Below, piece after piece: positions 241 through 23,356 of a stretch of DNA of 50,826 nt. The stretch spans positions 1 to 50,826 of the IMG/VR virus record IMGVR_UViG_3300025669_000046; one strand, 5' to 3'. The stretch comes from a virus. Within the stretch, counting starts at the first letter, position 1; each line of letters begins with the position of its first letter. The position numbers were made by a program, and so were the translations under genes. The notes beneath the pieces are model-generated. The model did not search any database, was not told the origin of the DNA, and was given only the letters and a program-made list of their open reading frames with translations.

Positions 241-245
241 ATTTA

Positions 246-614: not shown

Positions 615-620
615 ACCTAA

Positions 621-968
621 TTAAATTACCTCAATAAATAAATAAACCACAGCAGTTAAAAATGTAACTACACCAGCCACAATTCCTGTGTATGCTAATG
701 CCTTTCCTTCTTTTTTATCTATCCAGCTCTGTTGTGTTCTATCCCGTACATCGAGAATCTGGATCTTCTTGCAATGATCCTTTGTTTCGCTTTCTAACTT
801 TACAACCTTACCATTAGTCTTTGTTGCCTGGATCTTCACATCATTGACTTTTGTGTCAATGATGTCAGTCTTATCATGAAGCCTATCAATCTTTATGTCT
901 AAATTTTTTATGTTATCATTAATTAAAAATATTACATCTTTATATGAAATATCATTGCTTTCCATCAT
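621..968 (-). CDS. Coiled-coil protein with C-terminal transmembrane helix (holin-like/membrane anchor)
   Basis: Heptad-rich N-terminus (IKNLDIKIDRLHDKTDIIDTKV) and hydrophobic C-terminus (ALAYTGIVAGVVTFLTAVVYLFIEVI). Confidence 0.55.
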   Translation of the reverse strand: MMESNDISYKDVIFLINDNIKNLDIKIDRLHDKTDIIDTKVNDVKIQATKTNGKVVKLESETKDHCKKIQILDVRDRTQQSWIDKKEGKALAYTGIVAGVVTFLTAVVYLFIEVI

Positions 969-1013
969 ACTTTTACACCTTTATACTTTATATCCTTATA
1001 TCTTTATATTTCT

Positions 1014-2750
1014 CTATTGCTCCACTATATTCTTCATTTTTATATTAGCTATTCTATCACCGTCATCTAAGTCGGCTACAAAGTACTCGCTTGTGGTATA
1101 GGTTGTGTCTTGTACTGGATTAGTTCCTGAACCACCGCTTGGGTCTACTAATGTCCAGTTAGTGTCACCAAAATCACCACCTTTTATGAACACAGCGAAT
1201 GTATTAGCAGGATAAACAACACTTCCACCTGCTCCTGAGATGTCCGGGAACACACCCTCGCTGGATAGTCGTGCGACTTTTAGTCTGTAATAAGTGTTGT
1301 TGTCGATGTAAGATGCTGCTGTTACAAATAAAATAGAAATTCCAGAATTAATTAATGAAAGTTTCTCATCTGAACTTATGTTTATTCTATATCCCCCATT
1401 ATCTGCTGAGTTCGTATTTGAATCTAAAAATGAAACTGATATTGAATTTCCAGCTCCACCTTTATACAAATCAAATTCCCATTCACCATAGGCTTGTTTG
1501 CTCTGTACAGCAGTTGTGCCTGCACTGTCACACTCTAGGTACTTAGTCCCAACCTTCAAGTCTGTAAGCACAGAGTCTGCTATTGCCATTTCATCTGTAA
1601 AATAAGTACCAGTGCCAGTTATGAAGGGGTCTTTAGTTCCAACAATGCCATCAGCACCGTCGTAGATCATGTTGTCTCTAAAGTACACCTCTTGAAAGGA
1701 ATTGTGGTATGCCTTAGCCTGAGTTGGTGTTAGTTCATAATTATAAAAATTCAAGTCAGCAATATCAAATGCACCATAGGATGTATCATTCAGAGCTAGT
1801 GTACACGCACTCATATCTACATCAGTTGAGCTGGTAATTACCACATTATGCCAAAGCCCAGCTGAGATTGTATCATTATCACTACCATTAATATAAGCAT
1901 TATCAAACTCTGCATAGGTTAATGTTCCTGCACTTGCTAGTATTAATTTATCATTAGCTGCACCCTCGAGTATTTGCTCAGTTGTAGTCGCTAGTTTAAT
2001 TCTGAAAGACACAGACTTTACATTGCCTAGATTTCCTAAAACTTCTTTGTCATCCACGCCATCAAACACAAGGCTGCCTTTGCCATCACTCAATGCACCA
2101 GAGATGGTACCAGTATTCCCATTCCCTGAGGTGTCAGTTAGAACACCATCCCCGCTTGGGATCATGTTATAAGATGCTACTAGACCAGTCTCCTTGCTCA
2201 GGTCAGCCTGCTTAAGAACTGGACTTGGGGCGTACTTAGTTTCATATAAGTTAAAAGAGTGTTGAAACTCCTCCATTAAATCGTTTCTTTCTTGTGTGGT
2301 TAGAAGTGCATCAAAACAAATGATTCTAGCAATATAAGTTTTTGTAGTTGGTGTAACTTCTAGGTCTGTTGAGAAATCTATACCACCACTAAATTGGCTT
2401 TCGGACATCTGCCATTCATTCAATACAGCAACATCACTATCTAAGTTATTAACATAATTCTCGGTTAGTCCAGTTCCTGAATATGAACCACCAGTAATTT
2501 CGAGCTTATCAGAACCATCATCTAAAAGAATTTTAGTGTTATCTATTGGTTTTATAAACATTATAATGGTCTTAACCCCAGTTAAAGTTACACCACTATC
2601 AATATCAGTAGCACTACCATCAAACAGCATAGCCTGACCCTTCTCGGTCTGCTTAAACCCACCAGTACCTGCTGTTAGTGTGCCTTTTATATTACTTACA
2701 GTATCTCGTAAACTCCCAAGTCGTGCATCAAAATTAAAAATCATAGACAT
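1014..2750 (-). CDS. LamG/concanavalin-A-like multi-domain virion protein (putative glycan-binding fibre)
   Basis: Two LamG-type starts (FNFDARLGSLRDTVSNIKGTL...MLFDGS; LVASYNM...LTDTSGNGNTGTISG...LVFDGVDD), plus WHNVVIT and DLNFYNYELTPTQAKAYH. Confidence 0.75.
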   Translation of the reverse strand: MSMIFNFDARLGSLRDTVSNIKGTLTAGTGGFKQTEKGQAMLFDGSATDIDSGVTLTGVKTIIMFIKPIDNTKILLDDGSDKLEITGGSYSGTGLTENYVNNLDSDVAVLNEWQMSESQFSGGIDFSTDLEVTPTTKTYIARIICFDALLTTQERNDLMEEFQHSFNLYETKYAPSPVLKQADLSKETGLVASYNMIPSGDGVLTDTSGNGNTGTISGALSDGKGSLVFDGVDDKEVLGNLGNVKSVSFRIKLATTTEQILEGAANDKLILASAGTLTYAEFDNAYINGSDNDTISAGLWHNVVITSSTDVDMSACTLALNDTSYGAFDIADLNFYNYELTPTQAKAYHNSFQEVYFRDNMIYDGADGIVGTKDPFITGTGTYFTDEMAIADSVLTDLKVGTKYLECDSAGTTAVQSKQAYGEWEFDLYKGGAGNSISVSFLDSNTNSADNGGYRINISSDEKLSLINSGISILFVTAASYIDNNTYYRLKVARLSSEGVFPDISGAGGSVVYPANTFAVFIKGGDFGDTNWTLVDPSGGSGTNPVQDTTYTTSEYFVADLDDGDRIANIKMKNIVEQ

Positions 2751-3511
2751 ATTATATCCCTCATAAATTTTTCATAATAATCTTGCCATTTACTTCTATT
2801 CCAATTTGTTTTAGCATGACAAACATTACATAAGGTTATTAAATTAATTAATTCATTATTATTTTTATTATAATCTATATGATGAATATGAAGTATTCTT
2901 TCTTTATCTGATATTCCACATTCTTGACAAATATAATTATCTCTTTCTCTAATTAACTGTTTTAATTTATTATTCCATTCTTTAGGATAAATTTCAAAAG
3001 AAATACCTCCTTTCCATCCTGGTGCATTTTCTCCTTTATATATTTCTCCAAAATGTTTTGACATACAATCTTTAGAACAATAAGGTAAATGATGTCTTAC
3101 ACTTAAACTTCTTTTTATAATACTTTTACCACAATAAGTGCATTCTACTTCTGAATATTTTCGTTCTATTCTATAATTATCATAACACTTTCTATTACAA
3201 AAATGTATTGAATGTCTATTATCTTCATTATTAGTAATCAATACTTTTTCACCACAATAATTACACATAACAAGTTTACCAGTGAATCTTATACTATCCA
3301 CACCAGAAGGTTGAGGATTTTTAATTTGATACTTTTTTTGTGCATCGTGTAATTTTTGTTTAGTTTCGTCTGTCATGGGATTTTCTTCCTTCCATTTATA
3401 TAAACATTCTTTACAACAAAAATGGTGACTATCTCTTTTACATCTAAATGGTTTCTTGTTAAACCTAGTTTTACATTGATCACATTCTACCATGTTTGCT
3501 ACTTTATTCAT
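2741..3511 (-). CDS. HNH homing endonuclease with repeated N-terminal zinc-binding modules
   Basis: Three CxxC...FC/YC-x3-C modules, then IRERDNYICQECG...LHIHHIDYNKNNNELINLITLCNVCHAKTN (HNH core). Confidence 0.9.
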   Translation of the reverse strand: MNKVANMVECDQCKTRFNKKPFRCKRDSHHFCCKECLYKWKEENPMTDETKQKLHDAQKKYQIKNPQPSGVDSIRFTGKLVMCNYCGEKVLITNNEDNRHSIHFCNRKCYDNYRIERKYSEVECTYCGKSIIKRSLSVRHHLPYCSKDCMSKHFGEIYKGENAPGWKGGISFEIYPKEWNNKLKQLIRERDNYICQECGISDKERILHIHHIDYNKNNNELINLITLCNVCHAKTNWNRSKWQDYYEKFMRDIICL

Positions 3512-3587
3512 TTCTTTTCACATTTAAACACAAAATTCCGATAGCCGATAACCGATTACCAGATAAAATATTATATTTTTTGAAATA

Positions 3588-5060
3588 TTATGGTACTACT
3601 GCACAACGCAGCCCGAGGCCGGTGCTCAAGGTCGAAGGACCATCGTTCAGGAGCAAGGCCAAAGACCCAGCATAAGAACCAGAGCCCCAGGAACCACTCC
3701 GCAGGAACCCACGCACTGTCGTTGATGCACTTGATCTATTACTATTGGTGTATATTCTACCCACACCATTGCTTGAGTTGTAATTCCCACGCATAAACAA
3801 ATCATTCCTACTCAAAGTAGTGTTACCTAAGTCAGTTTCATCTATATATTTTACATCACTATCAGCCTGGTTGTATCCAAACCAATTAAACCCAGCATTA
3901 TTCTCAGTACCATCATCATTGAACCCATCAGGCTGGTCTTTGCTTTGGATTGTATCACTGCACCAATTCCATACATTCCCTGCAAAGTCCCAAATGCACT
4001 GACCATTACTCAAAAATAAAGTACGTCTTTGGTATCCTGAGCTCTGACCAGTTCCTGAGTATCCATCATTATCATCCGTGCTCGCTGCTAGACTGTTTGC
4101 TGGAGTTCCGTCATTGTGCCCACTATAAATATAACCAGTTCCCACTGTTCCTGAGCTCCAGTTAGACTTGACATTTTCTATGTTCCTGGCAATGGACATC
4201 CATTGTGTGTTTGTAATTAATTGAACAGTGCAAGTTGCAAGGTCTGAGTCCAGTGCTCTAAAGCTATCTTGAAGTGCTGCACACTCTGCTATGCTCGCAG
4301 TTTGGGTTATGTTCACCCAGGGAGTTCCGTCTGCCCTGCTCTCTGCCTCATAAGCTGAGTCATAAGCTATATTCCCATCAGCAATACCCTTAATCTTCAT
4401 ATCATACTTAGACACAAAGAAACCCTTAGCGCCTGTTATGTAATCCGCTGGGACATACACAAATCCTTTATCTGCCATTTTCCGCATTATATGCTCTGAG
4501 GTTCTGCCTCTGTACTTTCTTTTGTGGTACATCGCCTCTACTTCACCAGGAGTCAGTGTGCCTTGATATATCTCAACTAAGTCCATTGTGCCTAGAAATT
4601 CATCTGAATTAGAAAATCTTGAACCAATTAATGTTTTATTGGCACCAGTTCCTTCTATTAAAGTTATTCCAGTTATAATTATTTCATTATTAACTCCTGC
4701 TACTGTAGTAGTAGTTGCAACACCATTAACATAAGCAGTCCCACTTTGAGCACTTAAATTTCCAGTAGTTACATCAAATCTAACAAAACCAACTCCATCA
4801 ACATTAGTCCCTTCACAGGTAAATAAATATCTATAACCTGCAAAACTCGTAGGATTACATCTAATCCTCACACTATAAGTACCATTCAAATCAAGGTCAT
4901 AATTTATCTTAGAGCTTGTACCATTAAATGTTCCCTTTCCATTACTGAAGTCTACATCGGTTGGTACACCATTATTTATTTTTCTTGTTATTTGTTCTGA
5001 TTCAAAGGTTTCCTTAAAAATAAGAGAACTACTTATACCATAACGTGATTCTTTAGTCAT
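3588..5060 (-). CDS. LamG-like + FGE-sulfatase/C-type-lectin-fold receptor-binding protein; DGR target-type C-terminus
   Basis: FFVSKYDMK, PWVNITQTASIAEC, LITNTQWMSIA, IWDFAGNVWNWC and a terminal RSGSW...GSLAL.L...PS....GLRC are CLec/FGE motifs. Likely start is ATG at 5060 after GAGGGT (the track uses 5075). Confidence 0.85.
   Translation of the reverse strand: MTKESRYGISSSLIFKETFESEQITRKINNGVPTDVDFSNGKGTFNGTSSKINYDLDLNGTYSVRIRCNPTSFAGYRYLFTCEGTNVDGVGFVRFDVTTGNLSAQSGTAYVNGVATTTTVAGVNNEIIITGITLIEGTGANKTLIGSRFSNSDEFLGTMDLVEIYQGTLTPGEVEAMYHKRKYRGRTSEHIMRKMADKGFVYVPADYITGAKGFFVSKYDMKIKGIADGNIAYDSAYEAESRADGTPWVNITQTASIAECAALQDSFRALDSDLATCTVQLITNTQWMSIARNIENVKSNWSSGTVGTGYIYSGHNDGTPANSLAASTDDNDGYSGTGQSSGYQRRTLFLSNGQCIWDFAGNVWNWCSDTIQSKDQPDGFNDDGTENNAGFNWFGYNQADSDVKYIDETDLGNTTLSRNDLFMRGNYNSSNGVGRIYTNSNRSSASTTVRGFLRSGSWGSGSYAGSLALLLNDGPSTLSTGLGLRCAVVP
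3603..3716 (-). other. DGR variable region (VR)-like segment
   Basis: 38 codons with only 8 A in 114 nt and 70/114 G+C (hand count) in an AT-rich gene. Putative variable codons are all NNY and sit where a template would carry AAY. Confidence 0.8.
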
Positions 5061-5241
5061 ATTTATTACCCTCAAATATATTATAAATCTTACTAATATG
5101 TTCTTTAAATTCTTTAGTCATATTACCACAAATACATTTACATAACCATTTATTACTACCATTATTAGTTTTACCATTTAATTCAATAACCGTTAAATCA
5201 CCAAATTGTTTTCCAGTTAAATCATGTGCTTTTCTTGGCAT
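5053..5241 (-). pseudogene. Truncated homing-endonuclease N-terminal fragment
   Basis: DLTGKQFGDLTVI...KWLCKCICGN is the N-terminal DNA-binding motif of HNH/AP2-type phage endonucleases. No nuclease domain follows. Confidence 0.7.
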
Positions 5242-5360
5242 ATCATCACTTTATAAGTATCATCCAGCGTCATCTGGTCTCCATCGAGTCCGTCATATCA
5301 ACACTGGGGTTCATTGTAGCTATGCGTTATGCTCAACACACAATGCATAGGTCTATAGAT

Positions 5361-5792
5361 TTATTCTTGTTGAGTATAATGTGCTTTAAGTTCTTCCCAG
5401 GTCATGTCGCCCTTGAGTTCATTAAAGACTTCTTCAACTCCCCAGTGTTGGTACACATCAAAGTCTTCTAAAAACTTAACTTGTGTAGTAGGGGTATAAT
5501 AAACTACAGCACTTATCAGTTCATTAGTATCCACATCATACTCAGCTGGAGTGATAATGTGTTTACCTTTTAGCTTTAATTCCATATCTGACACTAACAT
5601 TTGTTTAGCAGATTTTACTTCATTATAAATAGCCTGGATATCTTCAACCTTCAAGTGTACATTGCCTGGGTTATCAGTAATATAACTATTCATAATTGTC
5701 ATTGCGTTAAAGTCATTATTCCCAAAGTTAGCATAACCATCTTTAATTTGTTGCACTATTTTTATTTTTATTGCATCTTCCATATCATTCAC
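5361..5792 (-). CDS. Hypothetical virion-associated protein
   Basis: 143-aa ORF with GGTGA RBS inside the structural operon. No motif recognised. Confidence 0.6.
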   Translation of the reverse strand: MNDMEDAIKIKIVQQIKDGYANFGNNDFNAMTIMNSYITDNPGNVHLKVEDIQAIYNEVKSAKQMLVSDMELKLKGKHIITPAEYDVDTNELISAVVYYTPTTQVKFLEDFDVYQHWGVEEVFNELKGDMTWEELKAHYTQQE

Positions 5793-5809
5793 CTATTAAT
5801 ATATATTAT

Positions 5810-5953
5810 TTAAGGATACTCGTGATAGTATACCTTTACGTCTGTTGTATTTGCTATAGTATTACCTGAGCTATCCGCAGTTAGTGTAGTACCAATACCA
5901 TCAAGAATGTCTTGTGATAAAGTACCACCTTCACTTTCTTTAATACCGTTCAT
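5810..5953 (-). CDS. Small hypothetical protein (47 aa)
   Basis: Not in ORF track: MNGIKESEGGTLSQDILDGIGTTLTADSSGNTIANTTDVKVYYHEYP. It fills the gap between co-directional genes with structural-type codon usage. Confidence 0.55.
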   Translation of the reverse strand: MNGIKESEGGTLSQDILDGIGTTLTADSSGNTIANTTDVKVYYHEYP

Positions 5954-10783: not shown

Positions 10784-11653
10784 TTATTTTATTGATTCTA
10801 TAACTTTTTTAAATAATTCTTCATTCTTTATTTTTACATCAATAATTTTTACATTATATCCTAATTTCTTCAATTCTTTTTTTCTATAATTATCCTTTTC
10901 TATTCTATCTTTTTTAGTATGCCAATAACCATTAATCTCAATTATTAAATTTTGTTTTATAATATAAAAATCACAAACAAATCTATTATCAATTGATTTT
11001 TGAAACTCATATTGTATATTATTTCTTTCTAATAATATAATAAATAATAATTCTGGTTTTGATGCATTATCTAATTTTTTTATTCTTTCTGAATTTATTA
11101 AGGAATATTTCATTTTTTCAATTTGCTTTATCTTTTTTTCATTATTATTAGGATTGCTCCAATATTTTTGTCGCCCTATACTTATTTTTCTACATCTTTC
11201 TGGATTTCTTAATGATGTAAGTAAATTTTTATATGAATCTGATTTTTTCCATTCTTTACTATGCTTTGTTTTACTTTGTGATATTGCATATTTTTTTACA
11301 GATGCACTTGTTTCTTTAGTTAATCCTTTATTCCAAGCAACTTTTCCTTTACGATATTCACTTATTTTTTTTCTTATTTCTTTTGATATATTACTTTTTG
11401 ATTTTTTGATTTTTTCTATTGTTTCTTGTGAATGCTTTTTACCTTTATTCCAAGCAACTTTTCCTTTATGAGATTCACTCATTTTTTTCCTTGATTCTAA
11501 TGAATTTTTTTTACCCTTTCTTGGGGATATCCTACCTAATGCTCTTTTACTCAATTTTTCTTTTATTTGATTAACCTTTTCAATTGAAAAACATTCACTT
11601 AATTTCTTTCCTTTATTCCAAGCAACTTTTTTCTTCTTTTCCATATATCTCAA
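10784..11653 (-). CDS. NUMOD3 + Vsr/DUF559-like homing endonuclease
   Basis: Four (V)AWNKG repeats, KHSQETIEKI; FVCDFYI...IIEINGYWH...KD. Confidence 0.85.
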   Translation of the reverse strand: MRYMEKKKKVAWNKGKKLSECFSIEKVNQIKEKLSKRALGRISPRKGKKNSLESRKKMSESHKGKVAWNKGKKHSQETIEKIKKSKSNISKEIRKKISEYRKGKVAWNKGLTKETSASVKKYAISQSKTKHSKEWKKSDSYKNLLTSLRNPERCRKISIGRQKYWSNPNNNEKKIKQIEKMKYSLINSERIKKLDNASKPELLFIILLERNNIQYEFQKSIDNRFVCDFYIIKQNLIIEINGYWHTKKDRIEKDNYRKKELKKLGYNVKIIDVKIKNEELFKKVIESIK

Positions 11654-11712: not shown

Positions 11713-12744
11713 CTAACTTGTAATTTTTGCGATTGCATAAGGTCTTATGATTGCAAGAACTTCTGAAATTAAGGCAAGAATTTCTGTGTCTGGTGAACCT
11801 GGTAGTCTACCTTCGAAGAATTCGTGCTCAGCTTCTTTACAAAGCATTCCAGCATTCTTAGAATCTAATACTAATGCATATGCACCTGTTAATAATGGTG
11901 TTTCCCAAATTGTACAATCTAAAACTCTCATTGGTGATAGAATACCCATCTCTGATTTTTGAACTCCAGAGTTTGCGTTCCCAGGGAACATAGATTTTTG
12001 GAATGATTCGTCTAACACAATGTCATTGTAATATGTTGCACTTACAACGAAAAAGTTTGGATAGAAATTGTACTTAACTCCATTGCTTGCTGCTGCATCT
12101 CTAATTGCAAGTCTTGCTGCTAAGAAGTTTGCATAACTTAATCCACCAGTTACTGTAGTTCCAGCACCAGTTGCTAGACCATTTACGATGTTAGAAATTC
12201 TCTTTCTTACTAATGCATCCTTTGCATTTCCAAGTATATAATTCATTAATGAACCCATACCTCTCTTTCTAACTTCCCAAGTAATCTTTGTTGATGCAAG
12301 ATATTTCTTTGGTGTAACTGTGATTGGATCCACACCCTCTTCGAAGTAGCCTACTACGGATCCTTCTCCGATCTCTAATGCGATTGTTGGTTCTCCTCTT
12401 GGTATTTGGTATGCACCATATCCTGAGTTCTTAATCATATCATCATTGATATATACTAATGCCTCAGCCATTTGAAGTTCCTTATCACTAATCATTGCTG
12501 TTTGTATGATTTGGTGTAATAGAGTAGTATATGCACCTGTATTATTTGCTACAGTTTGTCCATCAGATTCTTTTAAATTAAGACTCTCTTTCAGGATTTT
12601 ACCATACTTAGGGTCATTACTTAAAGCTTCCTTGAATAAACCATTAATATTGCTTGCTAATTCTGTGTTTACAATATCATACTTTGGTGCTACATACTTT
12701 TCTACTTTAAATTTTGTTTTAAAAACATTACTTTTTTCTGTCAT
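11713..12744 (-). CDS. Major capsid protein (HK97 fold, putative)
   Basis: 343 aa directly after protease/scaffold. YQIPRG...EIGEGS..., TVTPKKYLASTKITWEV, PNFFVVSATYYNDI, terminal IIRPYAIAKIT match the HK97-like MCP layout. Confidence 0.85.
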   Translation of the reverse strand: MTEKSNVFKTKFKVEKYVAPKYDIVNTELASNINGLFKEALSNDPKYGKILKESLNLKESDGQTVANNTGAYTTLLHQIIQTAMISDKELQMAEALVYINDDMIKNSGYGAYQIPRGEPTIALEIGEGSVVGYFEEGVDPITVTPKKYLASTKITWEVRKRGMGSLMNYILGNAKDALVRKRISNIVNGLATGAGTTVTGGLSYANFLAARLAIRDAAASNGVKYNFYPNFFVVSATYYNDIVLDESFQKSMFPGNANSGVQKSEMGILSPMRVLDCTIWETPLLTGAYALVLDSKNAGMLCKEAEHEFFEGRLPGSPDTEILALISEVLAIIRPYAIAKITS

Positions 12745-12766: not shown

Positions 12767-14218
12767 TTATATTTTTAGTCTGTCATTTACAAATCCTGCA
12801 AATGCCTCTTTATAAGTCATTTCAGGCTTTGTTGTTATTGTCTCTTTCAAGCTTTGATTCAATTTCGAACTCTCTGTTTTTGGTGGGATTGGGGCATTAA
12901 CTTTGTCCTTATCCTTATCCTCTTTATCCTTATCCTCGTCAGCTTCTTTCTTAGTATCTTTTGTAGAATCTTCTTTACTATCTTCTGATTCTTTAATCAC
13001 TTTATCTTCAACAGTTTTTTCTTCAGGAACCACCTTATCATCTGCATCCTCAGACTCAGTCAATTTCTTTTCTTTGTCTTTGTCTTTGTCTTTGTCTTCT
13101 TCTACAGCTTCTTTTTTATCTTTATCTAAATCCTTGTCATCATCTAGAGCTTCCTTTTTTATGGTCTTGTCCTTTGGAACTTGTTCCTTAGGAACTGGTT
13201 CCTTTGAATCTTCGTCCTTTGGAAGTTTAGTCTTAATCATGTCTAATTCTTCTTTTAAAGATTTATTGTCATCCTTAATTAATTCTAGAGCTTCAACAAT
13301 TTTTGTCATGTCATCATTATATTCTTCTTTCAACACATTATCTTTCTTTTCTGTGTCCTCATTTTCTTTAATGACTTCTTCGTCTTGCTTAGGCTTAGTA
13401 ACTTTATCAGGATCTTGGTATGTTTCTTTCTTTATTTTTTTGTCCATTATTTCATCCTCCATATTGGAATCGTTACTGCTATCTTTTTTCATTATTGTCG
13501 GAGCTATTGCTCCAGATACATTCGCTGTGTTGATGTCTTCTTTCTTATTCTCATTACTATAATAAGCATTATCTTTTTTCAAATGATCAATCACTAACTG
13601 CTTGATCGCGGTATCCTTCAATTCTGGGTGCTCTCCTTTCTCGATCTTGAATCCCATATTGAACTCGTCATTGTAATCCTCAATAAATTTATTATTTTTA
13701 TAAGCCTCTGCAATTAAAGTTTCAATTGAAGTTTGGTCATACCCAGCGACATTAACTCCACTTGCTTCAAGAATATCACTAATATATGCTCTTTCATATT
13801 CCTTACCATCTTTAAATTCAGGACTTACTTCTGAAGCATTCAATTGAATACTTACTTTATTTATAAATCCTTCTACTACATCATTATAATATTGTGAACG
13901 TGGATTCAATTTGGATTTATAATACCACCCCGCGATATTTTCACCCTCATCATCTTCTTGAAGCCAAGAATCTACAAACTTACCAACTGGTCTATCAGTA
14001 GTTTCTAAGTCATGATTAAATAACATTGGTTTCCCAATCAATTCTTTATAATGATCTTTAATTGAACCCCAATCGTATAAAACTTTATTTCTTGAAACCA
14101 CATCCTTTGGAAGTAGTAATCCTTGAATATATGTATCTTTATTTTTATTTTCTTTTAATAAAGAAAATGTATCATTAGAAATATACCAACCTTTAATATT
14201 CGTTAATCCATTCACCAT
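12767..14218 (-). CDS. Prohead protease fused to acidic scaffold
   Basis: IQGLLLPKDVVSRNKVLYD, KPMLFNHDL...PVGKF, INKVSIQL, ILEASGVNVAG (herpes/HK97-like serine protease), followed by a long D/E/K-rich tail. Confidence 0.85.
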   Translation of the reverse strand: MVNGLTNIKGWYISNDTFSLLKENKNKDTYIQGLLLPKDVVSRNKVLYDWGSIKDHYKELIGKPMLFNHDLETTDRPVGKFVDSWLQEDDEGENIAGWYYKSKLNPRSQYYNDVVEGFINKVSIQLNASEVSPEFKDGKEYERAYISDILEASGVNVAGYDQTSIETLIAEAYKNNKFIEDYNDEFNMGFKIEKGEHPELKDTAIKQLVIDHLKKDNAYYSNENKKEDINTANVSGAIAPTIMKKDSSNDSNMEDEIMDKKIKKETYQDPDKVTKPKQDEEVIKENEDTEKKDNVLKEEYNDDMTKIVEALELIKDDNKSLKEELDMIKTKLPKDEDSKEPVPKEQVPKDKTIKKEALDDDKDLDKDKKEAVEEDKDKDKDKEKKLTESEDADDKVVPEEKTVEDKVIKESEDSKEDSTKDTKKEADEDKDKEDKDKDKVNAPIPPKTESSKLNQSLKETITTKPEMTYKEAFAGFVNDRLKI

Positions 14219-14293: not shown

Positions 14294-14560
14294 TTATATT
14301 TTAATCTCATTCTTCGAAGTGCCTATAATCTCGTTATTATTTATATGAATATACATTTTTGTGCTTGTGTCATATATAACTTCTTCATTATTATTCTTTT
14401 TAATAATCCTAATATTTTCTATGAATGATGCATTATTGATTGATTCCTTCTTTATATATTTTCCTAGTAATCTATATATCAAATATGCAATTGCACCGAC
14501 CATGATAGGATTCTTGATCTTCCCACCTAAAAACATTCGAATATCACTCAATAACGCCAT
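14294..14560 (-). CDS. Hypothetical protein with hydrophobic segment
   Basis: 88 aa, PIMVGAIAYLIYRLLG, followed by YIKKES. Confidence 0.5.
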   Translation of the reverse strand: MALLSDIRMFLGGKIKNPIMVGAIAYLIYRLLGKYIKKESINNASFIENIRIIKKNNNEEVIYDTSTKMYIHINNNEIIGTSKNEIKI

Positions 14561-14566: not shown

Positions 14567-15052
14567 TCATTCCTTTTTATCTTCTTTTTTATAGAACTTC
14601 TTCCAAATTTTTAATGTATTGCTAGAATTCTGAACTGCTTTTAATGACATGGACTTTTCTGGTTCAAGCTTCTTCTTTAATCCCTTGTATGTCTCTTTAA
14701 TAATATTTTTATAATTCTTAATTATATTCTCATGCCCAGCAATTAGTCTATCTAAGTATTCTATTGCGAGTTTAGATTTATTCTTATCATTTATGCTTGC
14801 TAAGAACTCCTCTGATTCCTTCTTTCTTTTATCAATGTTCGCCTTTGCAACCTTCTTTTGATTCTTCGTGTACTGATCAAATGCACTAACAAATTCCTTA
14901 GCTCTGGCATTCAGGTTTGTATTCGATTCCACAATTGCATTCACATTACTCTGTCCGAGTTCCTGGACTAGCACATGCTCAAACACATAGTCCCCTTTTT
15001 TATTCTGACTTATGTTCTTTTCATTCTTTAATACTTTAAGACTCATATTCAT
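14567..15052 (-). CDS. Hypothetical helical head-cluster protein
   Basis: 161 aa, coiled-coil character, between portal and protease. Confidence 0.55.
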   Translation of the reverse strand: MNMSLKVLKNEKNISQNKKGDYVFEHVLVQELGQSNVNAIVESNTNLNARAKEFVSAFDQYTKNQKKVAKANIDKRKKESEEFLASINDKNKSKLAIEYLDRLIAGHENIIKNYKNIIKETYKGLKKKLEPEKSMSLKAVQNSSNTLKIWKKFYKKEDKKE

Positions 15053-15070: not shown

Positions 15071-16822
15071 TTAACTTTTATTTTTATCAATCCATTTAAT
15101 CATATTATCTAATGATTTTGAGGACATTGTATCATTAACAGTTGATGCCCAATATAAATTGTTGTCATCTTTATAAATTCTTATTCCATTATGATTCATT
15201 ACTTCGTCTAGCTTCTCTTCAAGATTGTCTTCTGTATTGTCCTTAATTCCTTCTGTCAGTCTATAATTAATCCCCATGTTCTTAAGATTGCCTAAGAACT
15301 CGTTAATCTCTCTTTTCAATAAACTCTTGTTATCATTGAAATCTATCTTACCATTGTCTTGAAGATTCAATCCGAAGTCGTTACATGTCTGTCCAAGCTT
15401 AGCCTTAAGCTTAGGTATGTTATAAGCCCCAACCAACTGAATCGATGATTCCTTTTTGTTTAAATTGTTCAATCTCTCTTTATAGGATTCTTTTTTTAAG
15501 TTTTTAGGTGGAAAATATAAGATTTCACCATCATTTAAATCTTTTACTTTTATTTCATCATTAGAAATTTTAATAACTTTATATCTATATTTCTTACCCA
15601 TAGGACTAATAACAACATCACCTACTTTATAATCAAACTTTCCAAAATCAAAATATTCTCTCAAATTACTTAATCTCTCTTTGTAGGATTCTAAAGTATA
15701 AGGTGAACTCGTTCTTTTCATTTTATCTTTATAAAAATTAATTATATCAATCAATGTTTGTTTTGATGCTGTTGAATTTTTTAATTTATCTAAAATTTCA
15801 TTATCAGATTTTCCTTGCTTTAACATTGATGCTATAATTTGATCCTCTAAAGCTTCTTTCTTTATAAATTTCTCTTTCAATTTTTGTAATGCTTCTTTTT
15901 TAGTTCCGCACTTCTCGTCATACTCGGATTCATCATTCCATTCTGAATAGAAATAGTTCGCTTCGCTCTTCTCTGCATCAGATAAATCACTGAAGTTCTT
16001 TTTAAACTTCTTCTGTGATACATCGTCAAGTGTTAATACCTCTGTGTAGGATTCTTTTTTCAATTCTGAGTCATAATATTTATCAGTTCTTATTATTCCA
16101 CCAGCTGTTTTATACTCAACCTCAAATGAATCTGATCCAATTTTCTTTTTAATTGTACCAATTCTCTGAGGAAAATCAGAACCAACCTTTACTTTATCAC
16201 CAACTTCTAATGCCTCTTTGTAGGATTCTTTTTTTGATTTTATTATTTCAAAATCTTTTATTTGTCTATCTTTTGCAAATCTCTTTACTTCTTCTTCAGA
16301 ATCAAAAGGACCTCTTTGAAAAGTTACACCATCATCTTTATATTTTATTTTAAAACCGCTTGGTAAATAAGCTTCTCTGAAGTTATTCAATTTCTCTCTG
16401 AATGATTCTCCTAAGTAATTGTTCATTCCGTCGTTAATTATATACTCATCAACTGATGGGTACTTAGTTAGCATCTTCTTCTTAACCTCTATCTTAGGCA
16501 AGCCACTCTGGAATAATTCGTTTATCTCTTGCTGTATGTCACCCATAATAGATTCTTTTATGCCTTTTAATCTCTCTTTGTAATTCTCTAATTTCACACC
16601 AAAATTTTTTACTAACTTAGTTACTTCATTTGGATATAACAATTTCAAATTCTTTTTAATTACTATACTTTGTTCACTATTATCTTTATCTTTATATTTA
16701 TTATATAAATTCATGCCTAACAATAAATCATTCTTACTTACTTGTTTCATAATTATATTGATCTGATCATCATTTAATTTATTATTACTCATAAATTCTT
16801 TTAATCTCTCTTTGTAATTCAC
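15071..16822 (-). CDS. Modular head-cluster protein with repeated ESYKERL linkers (putative processed polyprotein/internal head protein)
   Basis: Seven E(S/N)(Y/F)xE-type linkers plus KKEA/LTEG variants separate 40-70 aa modules, two of them KOW/SH3-like (LEVGDKVKV; YKVGDVVIS). Confidence 0.6.
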   Translation of the reverse strand: MNYKERLKEFMSNNKLNDDQINIIMKQVSKNDLLLGMNLYNKYKDKDNSEQSIVIKKNLKLLYPNEVTKLVKNFGVKLENYKERLKGIKESIMGDIQQEINELFQSGLPKIEVKKKMLTKYPSVDEYIINDGMNNYLGESFREKLNNFREAYLPSGFKIKYKDDGVTFQRGPFDSEEEVKRFAKDRQIKDFEIIKSKKESYKEALEVGDKVKVGSDFPQRIGTIKKKIGSDSFEVEYKTAGGIIRTDKYYDSELKKESYTEVLTLDDVSQKKFKKNFSDLSDAEKSEANYFYSEWNDESEYDEKCGTKKEALQKLKEKFIKKEALEDQIIASMLKQGKSDNEILDKLKNSTASKQTLIDIINFYKDKMKRTSSPYTLESYKERLSNLREYFDFGKFDYKVGDVVISPMGKKYRYKVIKISNDEIKVKDLNDGEILYFPPKNLKKESYKERLNNLNKKESSIQLVGAYNIPKLKAKLGQTCNDFGLNLQDNGKIDFNDNKSLLKREINEFLGNLKNMGINYRLTEGIKDNTEDNLEEKLDEVMNHNGIRIYKDDNNLYWASTVNDTMSSKSLDNMIKWIDKNKS

Positions 16823-17058
16823 ATTTTCACCTTTTTAAATAAATCCTTTAACTTAGGCTTAGTATTAATCTTATCTTTCTTAACTTCTTTCTTGACTTCT
16901 TTCTTAACTTCTTTCTTAACTTCTTTCTTAACTTCTTTCTTTTTAGGCTTTAAGCTCTCTATGTGCTCCGACCATTTTTTTTGGAAATCATCAGGTCCTA
17001 AGCCTATAATAATTTTGCCTGTTAATTGGCATTTCTCTTTTATGTATTCATTATCCAT
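16819..17058 (-). CDS. Small protein with (KKEV)5 tail
   Basis: 79 aa, AGGGTGA RBS, overlaps the next gene's start. Confidence 0.6.
   Translation of the reverse strand: MDNEYIKEKCQLTGKIIIGLGPDDFQKKWSEHIESLKPKKKEVKKEVKKEVKKEVKKEVKKDKINTKPKLKDLFKKVKM
16877..16940. repeat. 12-bp tandem repeat x5 (TTCTTAACTTCT) encoding KKEV
   Basis: Units at 16877, 16889 (one variant base), 16901, 16913, 16925, plus a partial unit. Confidence 0.9.
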
Positions 17059-17084: not shown

Positions 17085-17897
17085 TTATATATTTATTTGA
17101 TTATAATATGATTCTTTAAATATATTTAAAAAATCAATTTTATTCATTTTATTAATTTGATGTTCCCATAATCTTAAAATTTTATATTCTGCATTTTTCA
17201 ATTCAATATTTCTAAATTTATCATTTTTTGTACCTAATGGATAATTATGCCAATAATTTCCATCACATTCAATTATCATATTTAAATCTTGTATATAAAT
17301 ATCACATTGATATTTATGTTCTATATTTAATATTGGTTTATGCTTAATAAATGGAATATTTAATTCTTTTAAAATAATTTGAATCTTTTTTTCTATTGAA
17401 GTTTCCCATGTATGTTTTTGTAATAATCTTGCTTTTTTTATTTTTCTTCTTGCTTCTTTCGTAACAATATGACCTTCTAAATTATTTGCATATTTATTTA
17501 CTCGTAAATCTGTTTCTTTTGTTAATCCCTTATTCCAAGTAATATTTCCTTTATGAGAATCACTTAATTTTTTTCTTGTTTCTTTAGAACATATTTTTCC
17601 TTTATTTGCAATACCAATTTTTTTCTTTTGCTCCTCTGACATTTTTTGTCCTTTATTTGGTGAAACTCTACCTTTTAATGATTTATGTACCTTTTCTTCA
17701 TAAGATTTTACATCTTTATAAAATAATTTAGAACTTTTACCTTTCCAAATACATGATCTTGATAATCCTAAATCTTTATTTTTTAAATTAAATTTGTTTG
17801 TATATTCTTTAATAGTCATATTATGTTTTTTTAAATGCTTATGCGTAATACTTTTAAAACATTTCCCACAAATTTTACAATATAATTTAATATCCAT
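17085..17897 (-). CDS. Zn-finger + NUMOD3 + Vsr/DUF559-like homing endonuclease
   Basis: CKICGKCFKSITHKHLKKHNMTIKEY, NUMOD3 (KMSEEQKKKI, CSKETRKKLS), YQCDIYI...IIECDGNYWH...LRLWEHQI. Confidence 0.85.
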   Translation of the reverse strand: MDIKLYCKICGKCFKSITHKHLKKHNMTIKEYTNKFNLKNKDLGLSRSCIWKGKSSKLFYKDVKSYEEKVHKSLKGRVSPNKGQKMSEEQKKKIGIANKGKICSKETRKKLSDSHKGNITWNKGLTKETDLRVNKYANNLEGHIVTKEARRKIKKARLLQKHTWETSIEKKIQIILKELNIPFIKHKPILNIEHKYQCDIYIQDLNMIIECDGNYWHNYPLGTKNDKFRNIELKNAEYKILRLWEHQINKMNKIDFLNIFKESYYNQINI

Positions 17898-17899: not shown

Positions 17900-19708
17900 T
17901 TATTTCTTCTTTTTTATTTTAGTTTCTTCAACAAGTTCCCCAGTACAAAGGCAACGATTAGCCCAACCCATCCACTCAATTTTTTTATCTACCATATCTT
18001 TAATTTTATACATTTTACCATGCTTATTTATATGATATATTCTTGGATTTTCTGATTTATTATGTCTCCAAATTACATCTCTATATCCATCATTATATGA
18101 TTTTTTTAACCAATTATACATTTTCTTTGCATGCACGTTCGGTGTGGAGTCCTTGACGTCCTTGTTCTTTTCCTCTAGGACTTTTTCTTGAAACGCAGCA
18201 GCAGGAGATTCTTCTTTCACCTCTGATTGATCAGACTTAGTCTGTTGTTCTTCATTCTCTTCAATTTTATTCTTCTCAGAATTTTTAATATATGGATTAT
18301 CAAATTGCTTGTATTCATTCTCATCCATACCATACTTCTGTTGTAGCAATGCATTCCATTGAGCTTGGAATAGATCTCCATTCGTAATAATCTCGTATCC
18401 TAGTCCCTTAAGTAACTGATTCAGTGTAATTGCATTGTTGTTATACAACTGTATTATTGATTCTTGTGTGTCCTTAGAATCATCTAATGTAACCTCACCG
18501 AACTCGAAGGTTGCATCCTTTAGCTTAGGATCTTGCTTCATTACGTGCTTTAGAATATTTTTATTAAGTAACTTAATATATTTATTTCTCTTATTCTCTA
18601 GACTTAATTCGAAAGGTATCTTCGCATTCGTGCTCGATGCATATGTGACTGTATCACTCCACGGGGTCATGAATGCTGGAGTTAATCCTGAACTTACTTC
18701 CTTTCTATTATACTCTAATCCATTCGGCATCTCGTTGAACTGAGTTGGTGTGATCTCTGTGCTACCAATTTTCTTGTTTATAATTACATGCTCCTCATCC
18801 TCTGGGGAGTTTAAAATGTCAGTTATAGTCTTTAGCTCTGTTGGATCAGGTCGGTCATTCTCGTCACCGACACTGAATATCTTCTTTCCGAATGCCATGA
18901 ACCGACTCGCGATCGCGTAATTCTTAAGTATCTGTGTGATGATCTCACTCGAATTAATTGTGGAGGCTAGATAGCTTCGACCATAATAACCATATCTTGA
19001 TAATCCGATCTTCATATGTATCAAGTCATCCTCTTTCAAGCCGACACCATAAACAGTCTCCTGCCAAGCAATACCATTTTTGACATAACTAATTAAATAC
19101 TGCTTAAGAACCATGTCACCATACTTTCTAAAAATATATGGAACTTGATAAATCCAGAACTCGTTTTCTTTATTCGCGACCTGGGCGAGATTATAATACA
19201 CCCTAGAAGAATCTGGTGAGACCTTAAAGTCGTTCATGTACTTTATACCACCTGTAATTGTGTCCCATACTGGTTCGATCCAGCTATTCCCACAGACCTC
19301 GCATTGAGTTATTATATTTTGAACTGATTCTGTTACATGGTCCCTTTGCTCGAGCCATTTACCAAACCAATCATTTGTATACTTATCTTTACTCGTAATC
19401 TTAATCTCGTTTCCTGTGATGAACAACACAATCTGATTCACACCAGAGTTTATATTCGGGATGTCCTCATAATTCTCTAAATTCCTCTGAATCTCATAAT
19501 GAGGTGTTCTCAAGGAATTTTTAAATAAAGTAGTTCTAAATGTATATGCACCAAGATCTGAAACAGTAAAGTTCTTTTCCTTTAAATTCTTCTCGATCTC
19601 GTCCACTCTATATGCTTTAGAATAAGCCCTGTTACTAGACTCCTTACTAATAGGCTTAATATTCTCGGTTCTAATACTATTATCTCTAAATAATTCTTTA
19701 ATTCTCAT
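17900..19708 (-). CDS. Portal protein with C-terminal MuF/SPP1-gp7-like segment
   Basis: Position after TerL, 602 aa. QCEVCGNSWIEPV, DDLIHMKIG...YYGRSYLAS, KEVSSGLTPAFM and FEFGE are portal-like; the C-terminus has IWRH...PRIYH..KHGKMY...NRCLC. Confidence 0.8.
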   Translation of the reverse strand: MRIKELFRDNSIRTENIKPISKESSNRAYSKAYRVDEIEKNLKEKNFTVSDLGAYTFRTTLFKNSLRTPHYEIQRNLENYEDIPNINSGVNQIVLFITGNEIKITSKDKYTNDWFGKWLEQRDHVTESVQNIITQCEVCGNSWIEPVWDTITGGIKYMNDFKVSPDSSRVYYNLAQVANKENEFWIYQVPYIFRKYGDMVLKQYLISYVKNGIAWQETVYGVGLKEDDLIHMKIGLSRYGYYGRSYLASTINSSEIITQILKNYAIASRFMAFGKKIFSVGDENDRPDPTELKTITDILNSPEDEEHVIINKKIGSTEITPTQFNEMPNGLEYNRKEVSSGLTPAFMTPWSDTVTYASSTNAKIPFELSLENKRNKYIKLLNKNILKHVMKQDPKLKDATFEFGEVTLDDSKDTQESIIQLYNNNAITLNQLLKGLGYEIITNGDLFQAQWNALLQQKYGMDENEYKQFDNPYIKNSEKNKIEENEEQQTKSDQSEVKEESPAAAFQEKVLEEKNKDVKDSTPNVHAKKMYNWLKKSYNDGYRDVIWRHNKSENPRIYHINKHGKMYKIKDMVDKKIEWMGWANRCLCTGELVEETKIKKKK

Positions 19709-20551: not shown

Positions 20552-23356
20552 TTAAAACAAATTGTTCATTTTCGCCTTTGATACGAGTTTATACATCTTC
20601 AACTTCTCTTCGATTGTAATCTCTTTATTCTTAATATCTACATCTTTCTTGCTTTCTTCAATCCTTGCCTCTCTAGATAACTGATTCCCGATCAATATAC
20701 CAGACCCTGACATCAGGCTGTTTAGATTCTTAGGCAATAATGCATGAGCATTAGATATTGTAGTGTCTCCATGCGCCATGTCATCAGTCAAATCCGATTC
20801 GACCTTCTCGAAGTTATAATCATACTGCCAACCACTGAAGTGCATTAACTGCACACTATCCCGAAGATAAGTCACTTTCTTATTCATTTGCTTTTCGAGT
20901 TGGTTTGTATGCAGATATTCCTTAATCCCGACTGATTGTTTTCTATTTATCTTAATTCTATTCCCACGAACCACACGCACATGATGAGGGAACAACTTCT
21001 TTAAGTAATTAGACAACTGCACTCCTAGTCCATTTCCATCAATGTTCATCATTTCCAGACCGAGTGGCATGAAATGCTCAGACAAGTCCTGACAGACATC
21101 CTGCATGTAAGTCAAGTCCACACCTATTTTGTAATATAACCCCTCTTGGTTATAATTTATGTCATCGTCATTGAACACAGAAATAGAAAACATATCATTC
21201 GAGTACGCGGGATCGATGCCAATGTGCCATTTGCCTTGCTTATTCGGCCATTGGGATTTATCTAGACTGAATCGATCCTCGCTATTCAAAAAGAAGTTCT
21301 TATTATTATTTAATAAATTATCACGAATGAATTGTATGTCATAAAGCTTGTCGGTCTCGTCCACAAGCATTGCCATGTACTCTTCCTTGAACCGATTCAG
21401 ATTCATTCTTCGTCTTTTTTCGAGCTCAACAAGAGTAAGCCAAGGCACTATAGGGACAAGATCTTGCTTTGTTAGATCTTCATTCAGATTCACCTTCTTC
21501 GGATCCAATGCTGGCCACTTTCGTATTATAAACCCAGAATCGAAGCCTGTGTTGTTAAGCATCTCTATATTCTCTAACCAAAGATTGAAGCTCGTGAACC
21601 TACCTTTCCTTGTAGTCCCATATGTAAGTTGCAATGCCTTTTTCCCGATGTTCTCTCCGGATATAGTAGCACCTCTGGATGCGTCCTGCATTGCGATGTC
21701 TATGTTCTGGAACTCAATCTCGAAGTTACAATTATGTGAGAGTAACTTCATGCCACTAACTAAATAATTATGATTATTTTCTACTTCAAAATTATATACT
21801 ACTCGCCTTTCATTCTTTATAACAATATCTTTAATTTTATATATTTTATAATTATTTTTATTTATTTTTATTTCTTTATAATCATTATAATCTTTTGACA
21901 ATTTATACTTCATTGAAGGAATAATATATGGTGATATAATTTTACTTAACTTTAATGCATTTTTTTTATTGAATTTTATAAATGCTTTATTGCATCTTTT
22001 ATCTTTTAATAAAACAACATCAATATCATATTTATTTTTAAACCAATTCTTAATCAATATATTTTCTGCATATGAAAATGAATGAGTTGCTAATGTTGCT
22101 CCCCATATAACCCTACAACCATCATCCATAAACCAATATGCTAATGATATGTCTGTTAATTTATTTAAATAATTACTAGAAATAGTCTTTTTATTCTTTA
22201 TATATAATTTATTATATACATCTTTATATTCATTACTAATTTTTGAATATGCCTTTATAACATTACCACCAAAGGATGTCTTTTTTACTTTTTCTTTTTT
22301 TAAATTGAATATATCCACAATATGATCTAAATATTTCATTTGCTTTATTGAATGGCATGTTGAAAATATTGCAGACTTATATTTATTATATAATGAAATA
22401 TTTCCATCACCTAATAAAACACCATACAATATTTCTAATTGTATCTTATTTAATTTATATGAATTCTTATTTGTAAATGATATTAAATTATCATTTACTT
22501 TAAATTCTGAAATTGGTTTTATTTTAAATGTATCATCATAAAATGGATGAGTATCAGTGCACTTTATTGAATAACCTTGATTATGCATTTTAACATAATA
22601 AACATTACCATTATATGTTCTTTTATTTTTATGTACTATTTCCTTAAATTCTACTTTATTATTATTTAAGTTATAACTTGCTAATTTATAATTATCTATA
22701 TTTTTATAAATACCCGAGCATACTACTACTCCTTTATTGGTTACTAATTTTACATTACCTAACAAACATTCGTCATTAAATCCATAATTAATTCTTAGTC
22801 CTCTGATGTTCTCCGAGGATCTCGAGCTCGATGGATACCCAGTGATTGTCACATCCCTATCCGGGATCGTGATCTCATGTGCAGTAAATCTCACGAGCTT
22901 ATTATTAAATGGCCAATAAATCACAGACCCATCGTCTTGTGTGTATGTTAATGGTGTCATTTTCTCGATTATTTCTTTCATCTCTTTACTAATAAGCTCC
23001 ATGACTTTTTTATCATTGATTCTAACTATTGGAGCGATCTGATCTTTAAATTCATAAGTATTAGTACAAAATCTAATTACACCATCTGTGGTTAGTGATG
23101 TATTTCTAGACTTAATTATTACTTCAGAAAGAGCATTATATTGCTTTATCACTAAATCATCTTTATGAAACTCGGCTTGATGATTAGTTAGTTTAATTGG
23201 TCCCCATGTACCATCTGGGTATTTTACTTTAAAAACAGACTCTATCATTTTCAGATAGACTTCTTCTTTTTTTGTTACTTCCGGTGCAGGATACCAGCTC
23301 GGATAAACCGATTGCCATATATGATAATCACTAGGACTATCATTCACGCTTGGCAT
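20552..23356 (-). CDS. terL: Terminase large subunit, intein-containing
   Basis: IKLTNHQ (Q motif), IIKSRNTSLTT (Walker A variant), RGLRINYGFNDE (Walker B), nuclease WHIGIDPAYSNDMFSISV, MNIDGNGLG, HGDTTIS. Confidence 0.9.
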   Translation of the reverse strand: MPSVNDSPSDYHIWQSVYPSWYPAPEVTKKEEVYLKMIESVFKVKYPDGTWGPIKLTNHQAEFHKDDLVIKQYNALSEVIIKSRNTSLTTDGVIRFCTNTYEFKDQIAPIVRINDKKVMELISKEMKEIIEKMTPLTYTQDDGSVIYWPFNNKLVRFTAHEITIPDRDVTITGYPSSSRSSENIRGLRINYGFNDECLLGNVKLVTNKGVVVCSGIYKNIDNYKLASYNLNNNKVEFKEIVHKNKRTYNGNVYYVKMHNQGYSIKCTDTHPFYDDTFKIKPISEFKVNDNLISFTNKNSYKLNKIQLEILYGVLLGDGNISLYNKYKSAIFSTCHSIKQMKYLDHIVDIFNLKKEKVKKTSFGGNVIKAYSKISNEYKDVYNKLYIKNKKTISSNYLNKLTDISLAYWFMDDGCRVIWGATLATHSFSYAENILIKNWFKNKYDIDVVLLKDKRCNKAFIKFNKKNALKLSKIISPYIIPSMKYKLSKDYNDYKEIKINKNNYKIYKIKDIVIKNERRVVYNFEVENNHNYLVSGMKLLSHNCNFEIEFQNIDIAMQDASRGATISGENIGKKALQLTYGTTRKGRFTSFNLWLENIEMLNNTGFDSGFIIRKWPALDPKKVNLNEDLTKQDLVPIVPWLTLVELEKRRRMNLNRFKEEYMAMLVDETDKLYDIQFIRDNLLNNNKNFFLNSEDRFSLDKSQWPNKQGKWHIGIDPAYSNDMFSISVFNDDDINYNQEGLYYKIGVDLTYMQDVCQDLSEHFMPLGLEMMNIDGNGLGVQLSNYLKKLFPHHVRVVRGNRIKINRKQSVGIKEYLHTNQLEKQMNKKVTYLRDSVQLMHFSGWQYDYNFEKVESDLTDDMAHGDTTISNAHALLPKNLNSLMSGSGILIGNQLSREARIEESKKDVDIKNKEITIEEKLKMYKLVSKAKMNNLF
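21731..22768 (-). mobile_element. Intein with LAGLIDADG homing endonuclease (346 aa)
   Basis: Begins CLLGNVKLVT after NDE and ends VYNFEVENNHNYLVSGMKLLSHN before Cys. Internal LYGVLLGDG and LAYWFMDDG; DNA is markedly more AT-rich than the exteins. Confidence 0.92.

Follow-up and report, generated by a model that had tools for sequence, protein, structure and literature searches.

A Repeated Junction Peptide in a Candidate Head-Loaded Polyprotein of an HK97-Type Virus and Its Likeness to the Presumed Capsid Maturation Site

The linear IMG/VR record IMGVR_UViG_3300025669_000046 of an uncultured tailed virus (50,826 bp; CheckV completeness estimate 25%; guanine plus cytosine (GC) content 19–36% in 2-kb windows) was analysed whole and is called the window below. 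Its head gene module contains an open reading frame (ORF) whose product of 583 amino acids (aa) consists of about nine small modules connected by a repeated peptide, S-[YF]-[KR]-E (Table 1). This product is probably a polyprotein that is loaded into the head and cut after Glu by the prohead protease of the Peptidase_S78 family, which is encoded in the same module.

Junction Peptide and Modules

The junction peptide occurs in a single form (ESYKE) or in a doubled one (ESYKE-RLN-xFKE). Every linker listed in the original prediction, made from the letters of the window without database searches, is found in the 583-aa product, including the cores of the KKESYKEA and KKESYTEV regions and the degenerate RLTEG. 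Enrichment was assessed with 300 composition-preserving shuffles, and 47 ORFs of the window were compared. In the polyprotein the motif E[SN][YF][KR]E was observed 5 times (0.0 expected), KKE[SA] 6 times (0.1 expected) and [KR]E[SA] 9 times (0.8 expected), and each of these counts was reached by none of the 300 shuffles. Strong enrichment of [KR]E[SA] (p <0.01) is confined to three of the 47 ORFs: the polyprotein, the major capsid protein (MCP; 4 observed, 0.4 expected) and the prohead protease fused to the scaffold (5 observed, 1.1 expected). The rest are at or near expectation.

The whole polyprotein, modelled by AlphaFold2 from a 15-sequence alignment, received a predicted template modelling score (pTM) of 0.28, and the ESMFold model from the Atlas (pTM 0.18) agrees with it. 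High AlphaFold2 confidence was obtained for six modules, namely M2, M3, M4, M5, M6 and M8, with the predicted local distance difference test (pLDDT) in the overall range of 73–93. The stretches with pLDDT <50 (residues 57–82, 143–154, 197–202, 257–261, 297–309, 435–456 and 526–541) coincide with or adjoin six of the eight junctions, and several linkers are modelled by AlphaFold as helices running into the neighbouring modules. According to both models the polyprotein is a set of beads on a string and not one integrated fold, as had been predicted.

Comparison of the whole model with the PDB by Foldseek gave no match at E <=0.001; weak local SH3/KOW and ferredoxin-like matches were obtained, by which M4 is assigned as an SH3/KOW/Tudor-like barrel. 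Module M8 was also modelled alone (pLDDT 88, pTM 0.73), and its search against 48,161 PDB chains and BFVD yielded generic ferredoxin-like matches (HMA, ACT, prodomain; best Z 7.8), not diagnostic of function. In the ESM Atlas no usable structural look-alike of the polyprotein was found. The folds that had been proposed for the modules fit broadly: M4 resembles SH3/KOW, M2, M5 and M6 are helical, and M3 contains GPFDSEEEV. The second SH3-like assignment, that of M7, comes from sequence and is of low confidence.

No Pfam or PADLOC family was found above threshold for the polyprotein and its 15 family proteins, and no PHROGs family for the polyprotein; a chalcone-synthase match (E 2e-4, below the cut-off) was taken as noise. 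Pfam scans detected no peptidase domain in the polyprotein. The modules are of 5.5–8 kDa each with an isoelectric point (pI) of 4.6–9.6.

The GTG start of the polyprotein is preceded by a Shine-Dalgarno-like site, AAGGTGA, and only 4 further codons are open upstream, for which reason a wrong start codon was rejected. A frameshift or fusion artefact was also rejected, since 583 codons are open in a region of 25–28% GC and homologues share the start and end motif.

Putative Cleavage Sites in the Capsid and Scaffold Proteins

Three of the four [KR]E[SA] sites of the MCP lie within its first 59 residues. In the protease-scaffold the five sites are located in the charged C-terminal half and include TYKE/A 12 residues before the C-terminus (the slash stands here and below for the bond after Glu). 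Such positions would fit a maturation programme. The MCP was aligned with 70 homologues of 35–77% identity, among which the column of E59 holds FKE in 51, LKE in 12, YKE in 5 and FTE in 2, i.e., [FLY]KE in 68/70. Position P4 is T, N or S in 56/70, and a conserved segment (..TT..GAYTT.L.), the presumed mature N-terminus, directly follows the E59 column. The linker core S-[YF]-K-E thus copies P4–P1 of the MCP site. Judged from this alignment, E59 is most likely the maturation site for the whole clade. In a more distant, high-GC locus (L005), KLKE/D was found by eye at the equivalent place.

The original prediction named a T4-type prohead protease, which is not borne out. PF04586 (Peptidase_S78) is matched by 12 of the 17 homologues of the N-terminal domain (190 residues), with a best E of 6.5e-10; whole-length alignment shows the protease homologues to be 29–62% identical. 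All 17 homologues have His69 (in N-H) and Ser123 (in V-S-I-Q), which by analogy would be catalytic. The sole PDB sequence match of the window protease, T4 gp21 (5jbl), is weak (E 0.51) and extends over the G-x-x-L..(S/N)RN..LY motif; a profile of the homologues against PDB sequences gave one ribosomal match, rejected as spurious. The homologues support an HK97-type Peptidase_S78 enzyme fused to a scaffold and not an enzyme of the T4 gp21 type. In the window as in the loci L002 and L012, a K/E/D-rich scaffold-like tail follows the protease domain in the same chain, and the MCP gene comes directly after the fusion gene.

Cleavage after Glu is well known for other head proteases. T4 gp21 cleaves after Glu at L/I-x-E (PMC9026906, PMC8442874, PMC3012670), and the head proteases of phiKZ and SPN3US also cleave after Glu (PMC10052503, PMC9026906). 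For the window protease a Glu specificity is suggested by the motifs of its putative substrates. The linkers, which had been proposed as sites of the prohead protease, are probably cut by it: the proposal agrees with Phi-K-E (Phi, a hydrophobic residue) at the presumed MCP maturation position and in the scaffold, while for the S78 family Glu specificity is putative.

Conservation of the Linkers in the Polyprotein Family

Relatives of the polyprotein were collected by an exhaustive profile-free search, which returned 16 representative proteins, and scans of metagenomes and IMG/VR added loci. Family statistics rest on 15 usable relatives of 79–1107 aa. Whole-protein BLAST within the family was uninformative, since the repeated linkers lead to off-register alignments, and clustering at the level of modules was used instead.

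Across the 15 proteins, 55 [SNGE][YF][KR]E units were counted against 2.3 expected, in line with the earlier expectation that linkers would be conserved between orthologues. The unit has S in 43/50 cases, [YF] in 50/50 and [KR] in 50/50, followed by E, with another E usually in front. The long form continues with [RK]-L-N-x-[LFI]-K-E, a second Phi-K-E seven residues on. The motif opens the homologues (MSYKEKL.., MEFRERL.., MNHKEKL..) and in many cases closes them as well (..ESYKERLNKLNKK).

The proteins comprise from 2 to ~17 modules (~17 in P0028). Of the 77 modules obtained by cutting at the linkers, 38 are singletons, and the others fall by clustering into 8 shared families. Families B (M2) and C (M5) occur in 7 proteins each, and family A (M8), the most conserved module, in 10/15, always at or near the C-terminal end. 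The shared modules keep the fixed order B, C, A, with variable modules interspersed. Within the family conservation is strongest in the linker, and module content is variable. The anticipated swapping of modules therefore holds as insertion, loss and replacement between the linkers, but not as free shuffling, since B precedes C and C precedes A throughout.

Among the loci, L002 shares the synteny of the window and has retained the sites in both the MCP and the scaffold. A distant relative, L012 (IMGVR_UViG_3300031952_000015), is a 70-kb IMG/VR record of 54% GC with an MCP 39% identical. Its 5'-truncated ORF of at least 1322 aa (positions 2-5907) is located directly upstream of the protease-scaffold and MCP (GITFKE/DVTTT) and carries 21 ES[FL]KE junctions spaced 37–82 aa apart, with at least 21 modules and the long form SFRSRLESFKE included. 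Phi-[KR]-E is found in this ORF 23 times against 3.0 expected, and the L012 scaffold C-terminus reads TESFKE/ALS. The L012 modules have almost no similarity to the window protein, apart from a faint match to family C (E 8e-4). The same linker peptide at very different GC and module content argues for selection on the peptide itself. The next L012 ORF (688 aa), which overlaps the first one, has four more junctions; the 130-nucleotide (nt) overlap of the two could be due to a frameshift or an assembly error.

The linker copies of the window gene use codons rare in the genome: TCC in 4/5 cases (5% genome-wide), TAC in 5/6 (17%) and GAG in 7/7 (36%). The DNA of linker L1 and the N-terminal linker copy have in common a 23-nt stretch, 100% identical. 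In the locus L003 the same linker peptide is encoded by different codons, and between genomes the peptide is constrained as protein. On top of this constraint, the linker copies within the window gene have been homogenised as DNA by concerted evolution or a recent spread, which fits module exchange at the linkers.

IMG/VR scans with P0028, the L012 polyprotein and a degenerate linker DNA pattern gave nothing new. One database protein of 199 aa, P0026, combines a DnaE-like fragment (by eye) with residues 223–282 of the window polyprotein (92% identity), beyond which the frame is lost; a chimeric assembly is its most likely origin.

Proposed Mechanism and Alternative Explanations

Under the proposed mechanism, nine modules that fold independently of each other would be synthesised late, alongside the head genes, as a single chain of 68 kDa, and this chain would enter the procapsid. 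The linker helices could act here as the 10-residue capsid-targeting sequence of T4 does. In the long linker, S-Y-K-E-R-L-N-x-F-K-E, Tyr, Leu and Phe are at i, i+4 and i+7 on the same helical face, a layout like that of the T4 targeting sequence, and the linker may thus double as a loading tag. The Peptidase_S78 protease would then cleave after the Glu of Phi-[KR]-E at the junctions, and by the same Glu rule would trim the MCP of its N-terminal propeptide (59 residues) and take the scaffold apart. The freed modules would remain with the DNA and enter the host upon infection, and among relatives modules would be gained, lost or replaced at the linkers. That the modules are ejected effectors is put forward tentatively, and we would not count on it.

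Several points weigh against this mechanism. We infer cleavage, Glu specificity, packaging, retention, ejection and the effector role. The window protease itself has no Pfam match at E <=0.1, its assignment resting on homologues, and HK97 gp4, the type enzyme of S78, is not known to be Glu-specific. The whole stretch of the MCP around the conserved [FLY]KE is conserved in general, and the triplet might have been kept for structural reasons instead of marking a cleavage site. In the doubled linker R-L is conserved in addition to the cut site, and the linker must thus have a further function besides, or instead of, cleavage. At 5.5–8 kDa, the modules might be lost from the procapsid instead of staying inside. 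Their fold matches are generic, and no module resembles a known effector, as recognisable conflict effectors (nucleases, methylases, Ard, ParB etc.) did not pass the Pfam and PADLOC thresholds. Finally, most relatives with a similar MCP (L005, L007, L008 and L011) have no polyprotein, which makes it accessory. In the head ORFs of L008, ESFKE and ESFRE occur as single sites.

The polyprotein could alternatively be an auxiliary protein of the core or the scaffold. It would enter the procapsid and be cut at these very sites, and its pieces would serve as filler or as size-determining or DNA-organising elements, expelled or inert rather than effectors, in the manner of T4 gp22, gp67 and gp68 or of the inner-body propeptides of phiKZ. 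The location of the gene in the head-assembly module, in the portal-protease interval, suits this role, as do the fixed order of the conserved families A, B and C and the lack of modules matching a known effector; cutting of core proteins and long propeptides at many sites is, moreover, established in T4, phiKZ and SPN3US. Nevertheless, we hold it improbable. The virus already has a protease-fused scaffold, and close MCP relatives manage without the polyprotein. A number of modules varying from 2 to ~17 (at least 21 in L012), about half of them singletons, is hard to square with size determination, and the modules, compact folds that differ in charge, do not look like uniform filler.

An uncleaved multi-domain virion or assembly protein appears rather more doubtful. 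Its repeat would be a helical connector, or a motif docking to the scaffold, the capsid interior or the portal, and the likeness to the MCP site would be coincidental. The R-L and the i, i+4, i+7 hydrophobic face kept in the doubled linker, the helices continuous with neighbouring modules in the AlphaFold model and the linker copies at the extreme termini would all suit docking. However, Phi-K-E is near-invariant at the MCP propeptide boundary and recurs near the scaffold C-terminus both in the window and in L012, the enrichment is limited to the three expected substrates of the protease, and the short ESYKE is too small for a docking helix. Docking and cutting are in any case compatible, as in the T4 targeting sequence.

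A repeat acting at the DNA level, i.e., recombination joints or gene-conversion tracts left by fused small genes with no function of the peptide, is scarcely credible: the shared rare codons and the identical 23-nt stretch speak for it, but the peptide is kept in other codons in L003, ES[FL]KE repeated 21 times at 54% GC in L012 shows selection acting on the protein, and homogenisation more plausibly results from module exchange, or helps it along, than accounts for the existence of the motif.

Comparison with Known Systems

The proposed cleavage of a head-loaded chain by the prohead protease would bring the polyprotein closest to the internal proteins of T4. In T4 the targeting sequence MKTYQEFIAE directs proteins to the capsid by residues 4 and 7, and its residues 8 and 10 direct processing (PMC9026906, PMC8442874, PMC3012670). 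As in IPI, IPII, IPIII and Alt of T4, a short N-terminal amphipathic aromatic/hydrophobic peptide ends in Phi-x-E, after whose Glu the prohead protease would cut, and small, diverse, fast-evolving cargo stands behind a conserved tag; the MCP and scaffold would obey the same cutting rule. The N-terminal peptide of the window protein, M-x-[YF]-[KR]-E-[RK]-L..Phi-K-E, resembles the T4 tag in layout and has no sequence homology to MKTYQEFIAE. In T4 the cargo is encoded by separate genes, each with one tag cut once, whereas here up to nine modules (at least 21 in L012) form one chain with a tag at each junction, and the protease is a Peptidase_S78 enzyme fused to the scaffold and not gp21. By analogy the polyprotein may work like the T4 internal proteins; it is not a member of that family, since the protease family differs, the tag is non-homologous and the cargo is one chain.

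The inner-body or ejection proteins of phiKZ, 201phi2-1 and SPN3US are another parallel: they are cut by the proteases gp175/gp245 at S/A-x-E, and several such Glu-type motifs are spread across head proteins (PMC10052503, PMC9026906). Their cargo is ejected into the host (PMC10052503, PMC9026906), whereas for the window ejection is proposed. Multiple cuts there strip long propeptides off one mature protein, while each segment between sites in the polyprotein is predicted to be a compact folded module. PhiKZ, 201phi2-1 and SPN3US are jumbo phages with a T4-like protease and, unlike the window virus, have no conserved repeated linker peptide.

Polyvalent proteins of phages and conjugative elements (Iyer et al. 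2017, PMC5512222) also combine many unrelated domains, a virion-gene context and mosaicism, and delivery with the DNA was proposed for them. The polyprotein, with nine modules in one chain of pTM 0.28 in the portal-protease interval, is multi-domain in the same sense. Polyvalent proteins consist of recognisable enzymatic or anti-restriction domains, often with their own peptidase, e.g., MPTase (PMC5512222), whereas the window modules are of 45–70 aa with no known domain or embedded peptidase, and the linker matches the putative site of the head protease.

The protease is itself like HK97-type protease-scaffold fusions (PF04586), in which an S78-type domain and a charged scaffold-like tail are encoded beside the MCP gene. 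A protease-scaffold fusion is also the arrangement of the P2 gpO type. To our knowledge, characterised S78 fusions have neither an after-Glu Phi-K-E specificity nor a dedicated multi-module substrate. A full-text literature search (prohead protease with polyprotein and related terms) found no such system described. The present case adds an HK97-type protease-scaffold system in a smaller virus, the clade-wide anchor of the site in the MCP and a distant relative with the same linker.

Until now, polyproteins have been familiar from RNA viruses and retroviruses. Were the chain cut in the proposed way, tailed viruses would use polyproteins too, as a new logic of gene expression that stocks the capsid with many small proteins at fixed stoichiometry. 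Through the linker, capsid cargo of uncultured viruses could then be recognised from sequence, and the specificity of a prohead protease be read from the genome. Dozens of modules of 45–80 residues, half of them unique to one virus, would become candidates for proteins that act as soon as infection starts, in its first seconds, when anti-defence factors are to be expected. The T4 targeting sequence already serves to bring foreign proteins into T4 capsids, and the linker could be put to the same use with HK97-type capsids, as a portable tag. We would go further only with reserve: in tailed viruses with HK97 heads, possibly including archaeal ones, one peptide may perhaps unite a targeting tag, a protease site and a recombination joint, by which a single gene could load swappable anti-defence or host-takeover mini-proteins into the capsid and free them during maturation.

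Head Gene Region and Neighbouring Genes

The head module is encoded on the minus strand in the order terminase, portal, HNH/NUMOD3 gene, 79-aa ORF, polyprotein, 161-aa ORF, 88-aa ORF, protease-scaffold and MCP. The polyprotein gene thus lies between the portal and the protease, as the original prediction stated, and is adjacent to neither: the HNH/NUMOD3 gene and the 79-aa ORF are on one side, the 161-aa and 88-aa ORFs on the other.

Table 1. Head gene region of the window with the modules and linkers of the polyprotein (module folds are model-based; a slash stands for the bond after Glu).
Feature	Residues (aa)	Position in the window	Strand	Remarks
Large terminase		20552-23356	minus	split by an intein with a LAGLIDADG endonuclease
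Portal		17900-19708	minus	
HNH/NUMOD3 endonuclease gene		17085-17897	minus	
79-aa ORF		16819..17058	minus	KKEV tandem repeat, five full units
Polyprotein ORF		15071..16822	minus	583 aa, 68 kDa, GTG start, about nine modules
N-terminal linker copy MNYKERLKEF	1-10	16793..16822	minus	homologues likewise begin M-x-[YF]-[KR]-E-[RK]-L
Module M1	11-78	16589..16792	minus	helical, low confidence, only in this virus
Linker L1 ENYKERLKGIKE	79-90	16553..16588	minus	
Module M2	91-138	16409..16552	minus	helical, pLDDT 83-92; family B, 7/15 proteins
Linker L2 ESFREKLNNFRE	139-150	16373..16408	minus	double-site form
Module M3	151-198	16229..16372	minus	beta-beta-alpha-beta, contains GPFDSEEEV, pLDDT ~90, unique
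Linker L3 ESYKE	199-203	16214..16228	minus	short form
Module M4	204-256	16055..16213	minus	probable SH3/KOW/Tudor-like beta barrel, pLDDT 73-91; family E, 3 proteins
Linker L4 ESYTE	257-261	16040..16054	minus	short degenerate form
Module M5	262-307	15902..16039	minus	helical, pLDDT 75-91; family C, 7/15 proteins
Linker L5 KKEALQKLKEKFIKKE	308-323	15854..15901	minus	variant double-site form, found too in P0004 and P0032
Module M6	324-377	15692..15853	minus	helical bundle, pLDDT ~80, unique
Linker L6 ESYKERLSNLRE	378-389	15656..15691	minus	
Module M7	390-444	15491..15655	minus	SH3-like by sequence, low pLDDT; family F, also in P0033
Linker L7 ESYKERLNNLNKKE	445-458	15449..15490	minus	
Module M8	459-522	15257..15448	minus	ferredoxin-like beta-alpha-beta-beta-alpha-beta, pLDDT 88-93; family A
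Degenerate junction RLTEG and module M9	520-524 and 523-583	15074..15256	minus	M9 acidic, medium confidence
161-aa ORF		14567..15052	minus	syntenic, conserved, between polyprotein and protease
88-aa ORF		14294..14560	minus	hydrophobic N-terminal helix, then YIKKE/S
Prohead protease fused to scaffold		12767..14218	minus	483 aa; HK97-type N-terminal domain; K/E/D-rich C-terminal half
MCP		11713..12744	minus	HK97 fold
MCP N-terminal 59 residues	1-59	12568..12744	minus	LFKE/A, ILKE/S and NLKE/S at residues 39, 53 and 59
Second HNH/NUMOD3-type endonuclease gene		10784-11653	minus	

Reference prokaryote genomes were scanned with the MCP and M8 alignments, and no provirus was found in them; for this reason no host assignment was made. 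Selfish elements heavily invade the head module, with two HNH/NUMOD3-type genes flanking the head genes and the terminase intein. The C-terminal extension of the portal has a weak, sub-threshold match to a Mu F-like domain (aa 536–586, E 0.05). In L005 the portal-protease slot is filled by a separate 271-aa ORF, MuF-like by eye.

The stop codon of the 79-aa ORF overlaps the GTG start of the polyprotein (ATGTGA), an arrangement that suggests translational coupling of the two. The synteny of the 161-aa ORF is kept in the window, L002 and L003; it has no family match and may be another head-assembly factor. The 88-aa ORF is syntenic and conserved in L002, and in P0037 its homologue forms one protein with modules joined by linkers. 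The 88-aa product could serve as an anchor, in the membrane or in assembly, that the same prohead protease sets free.

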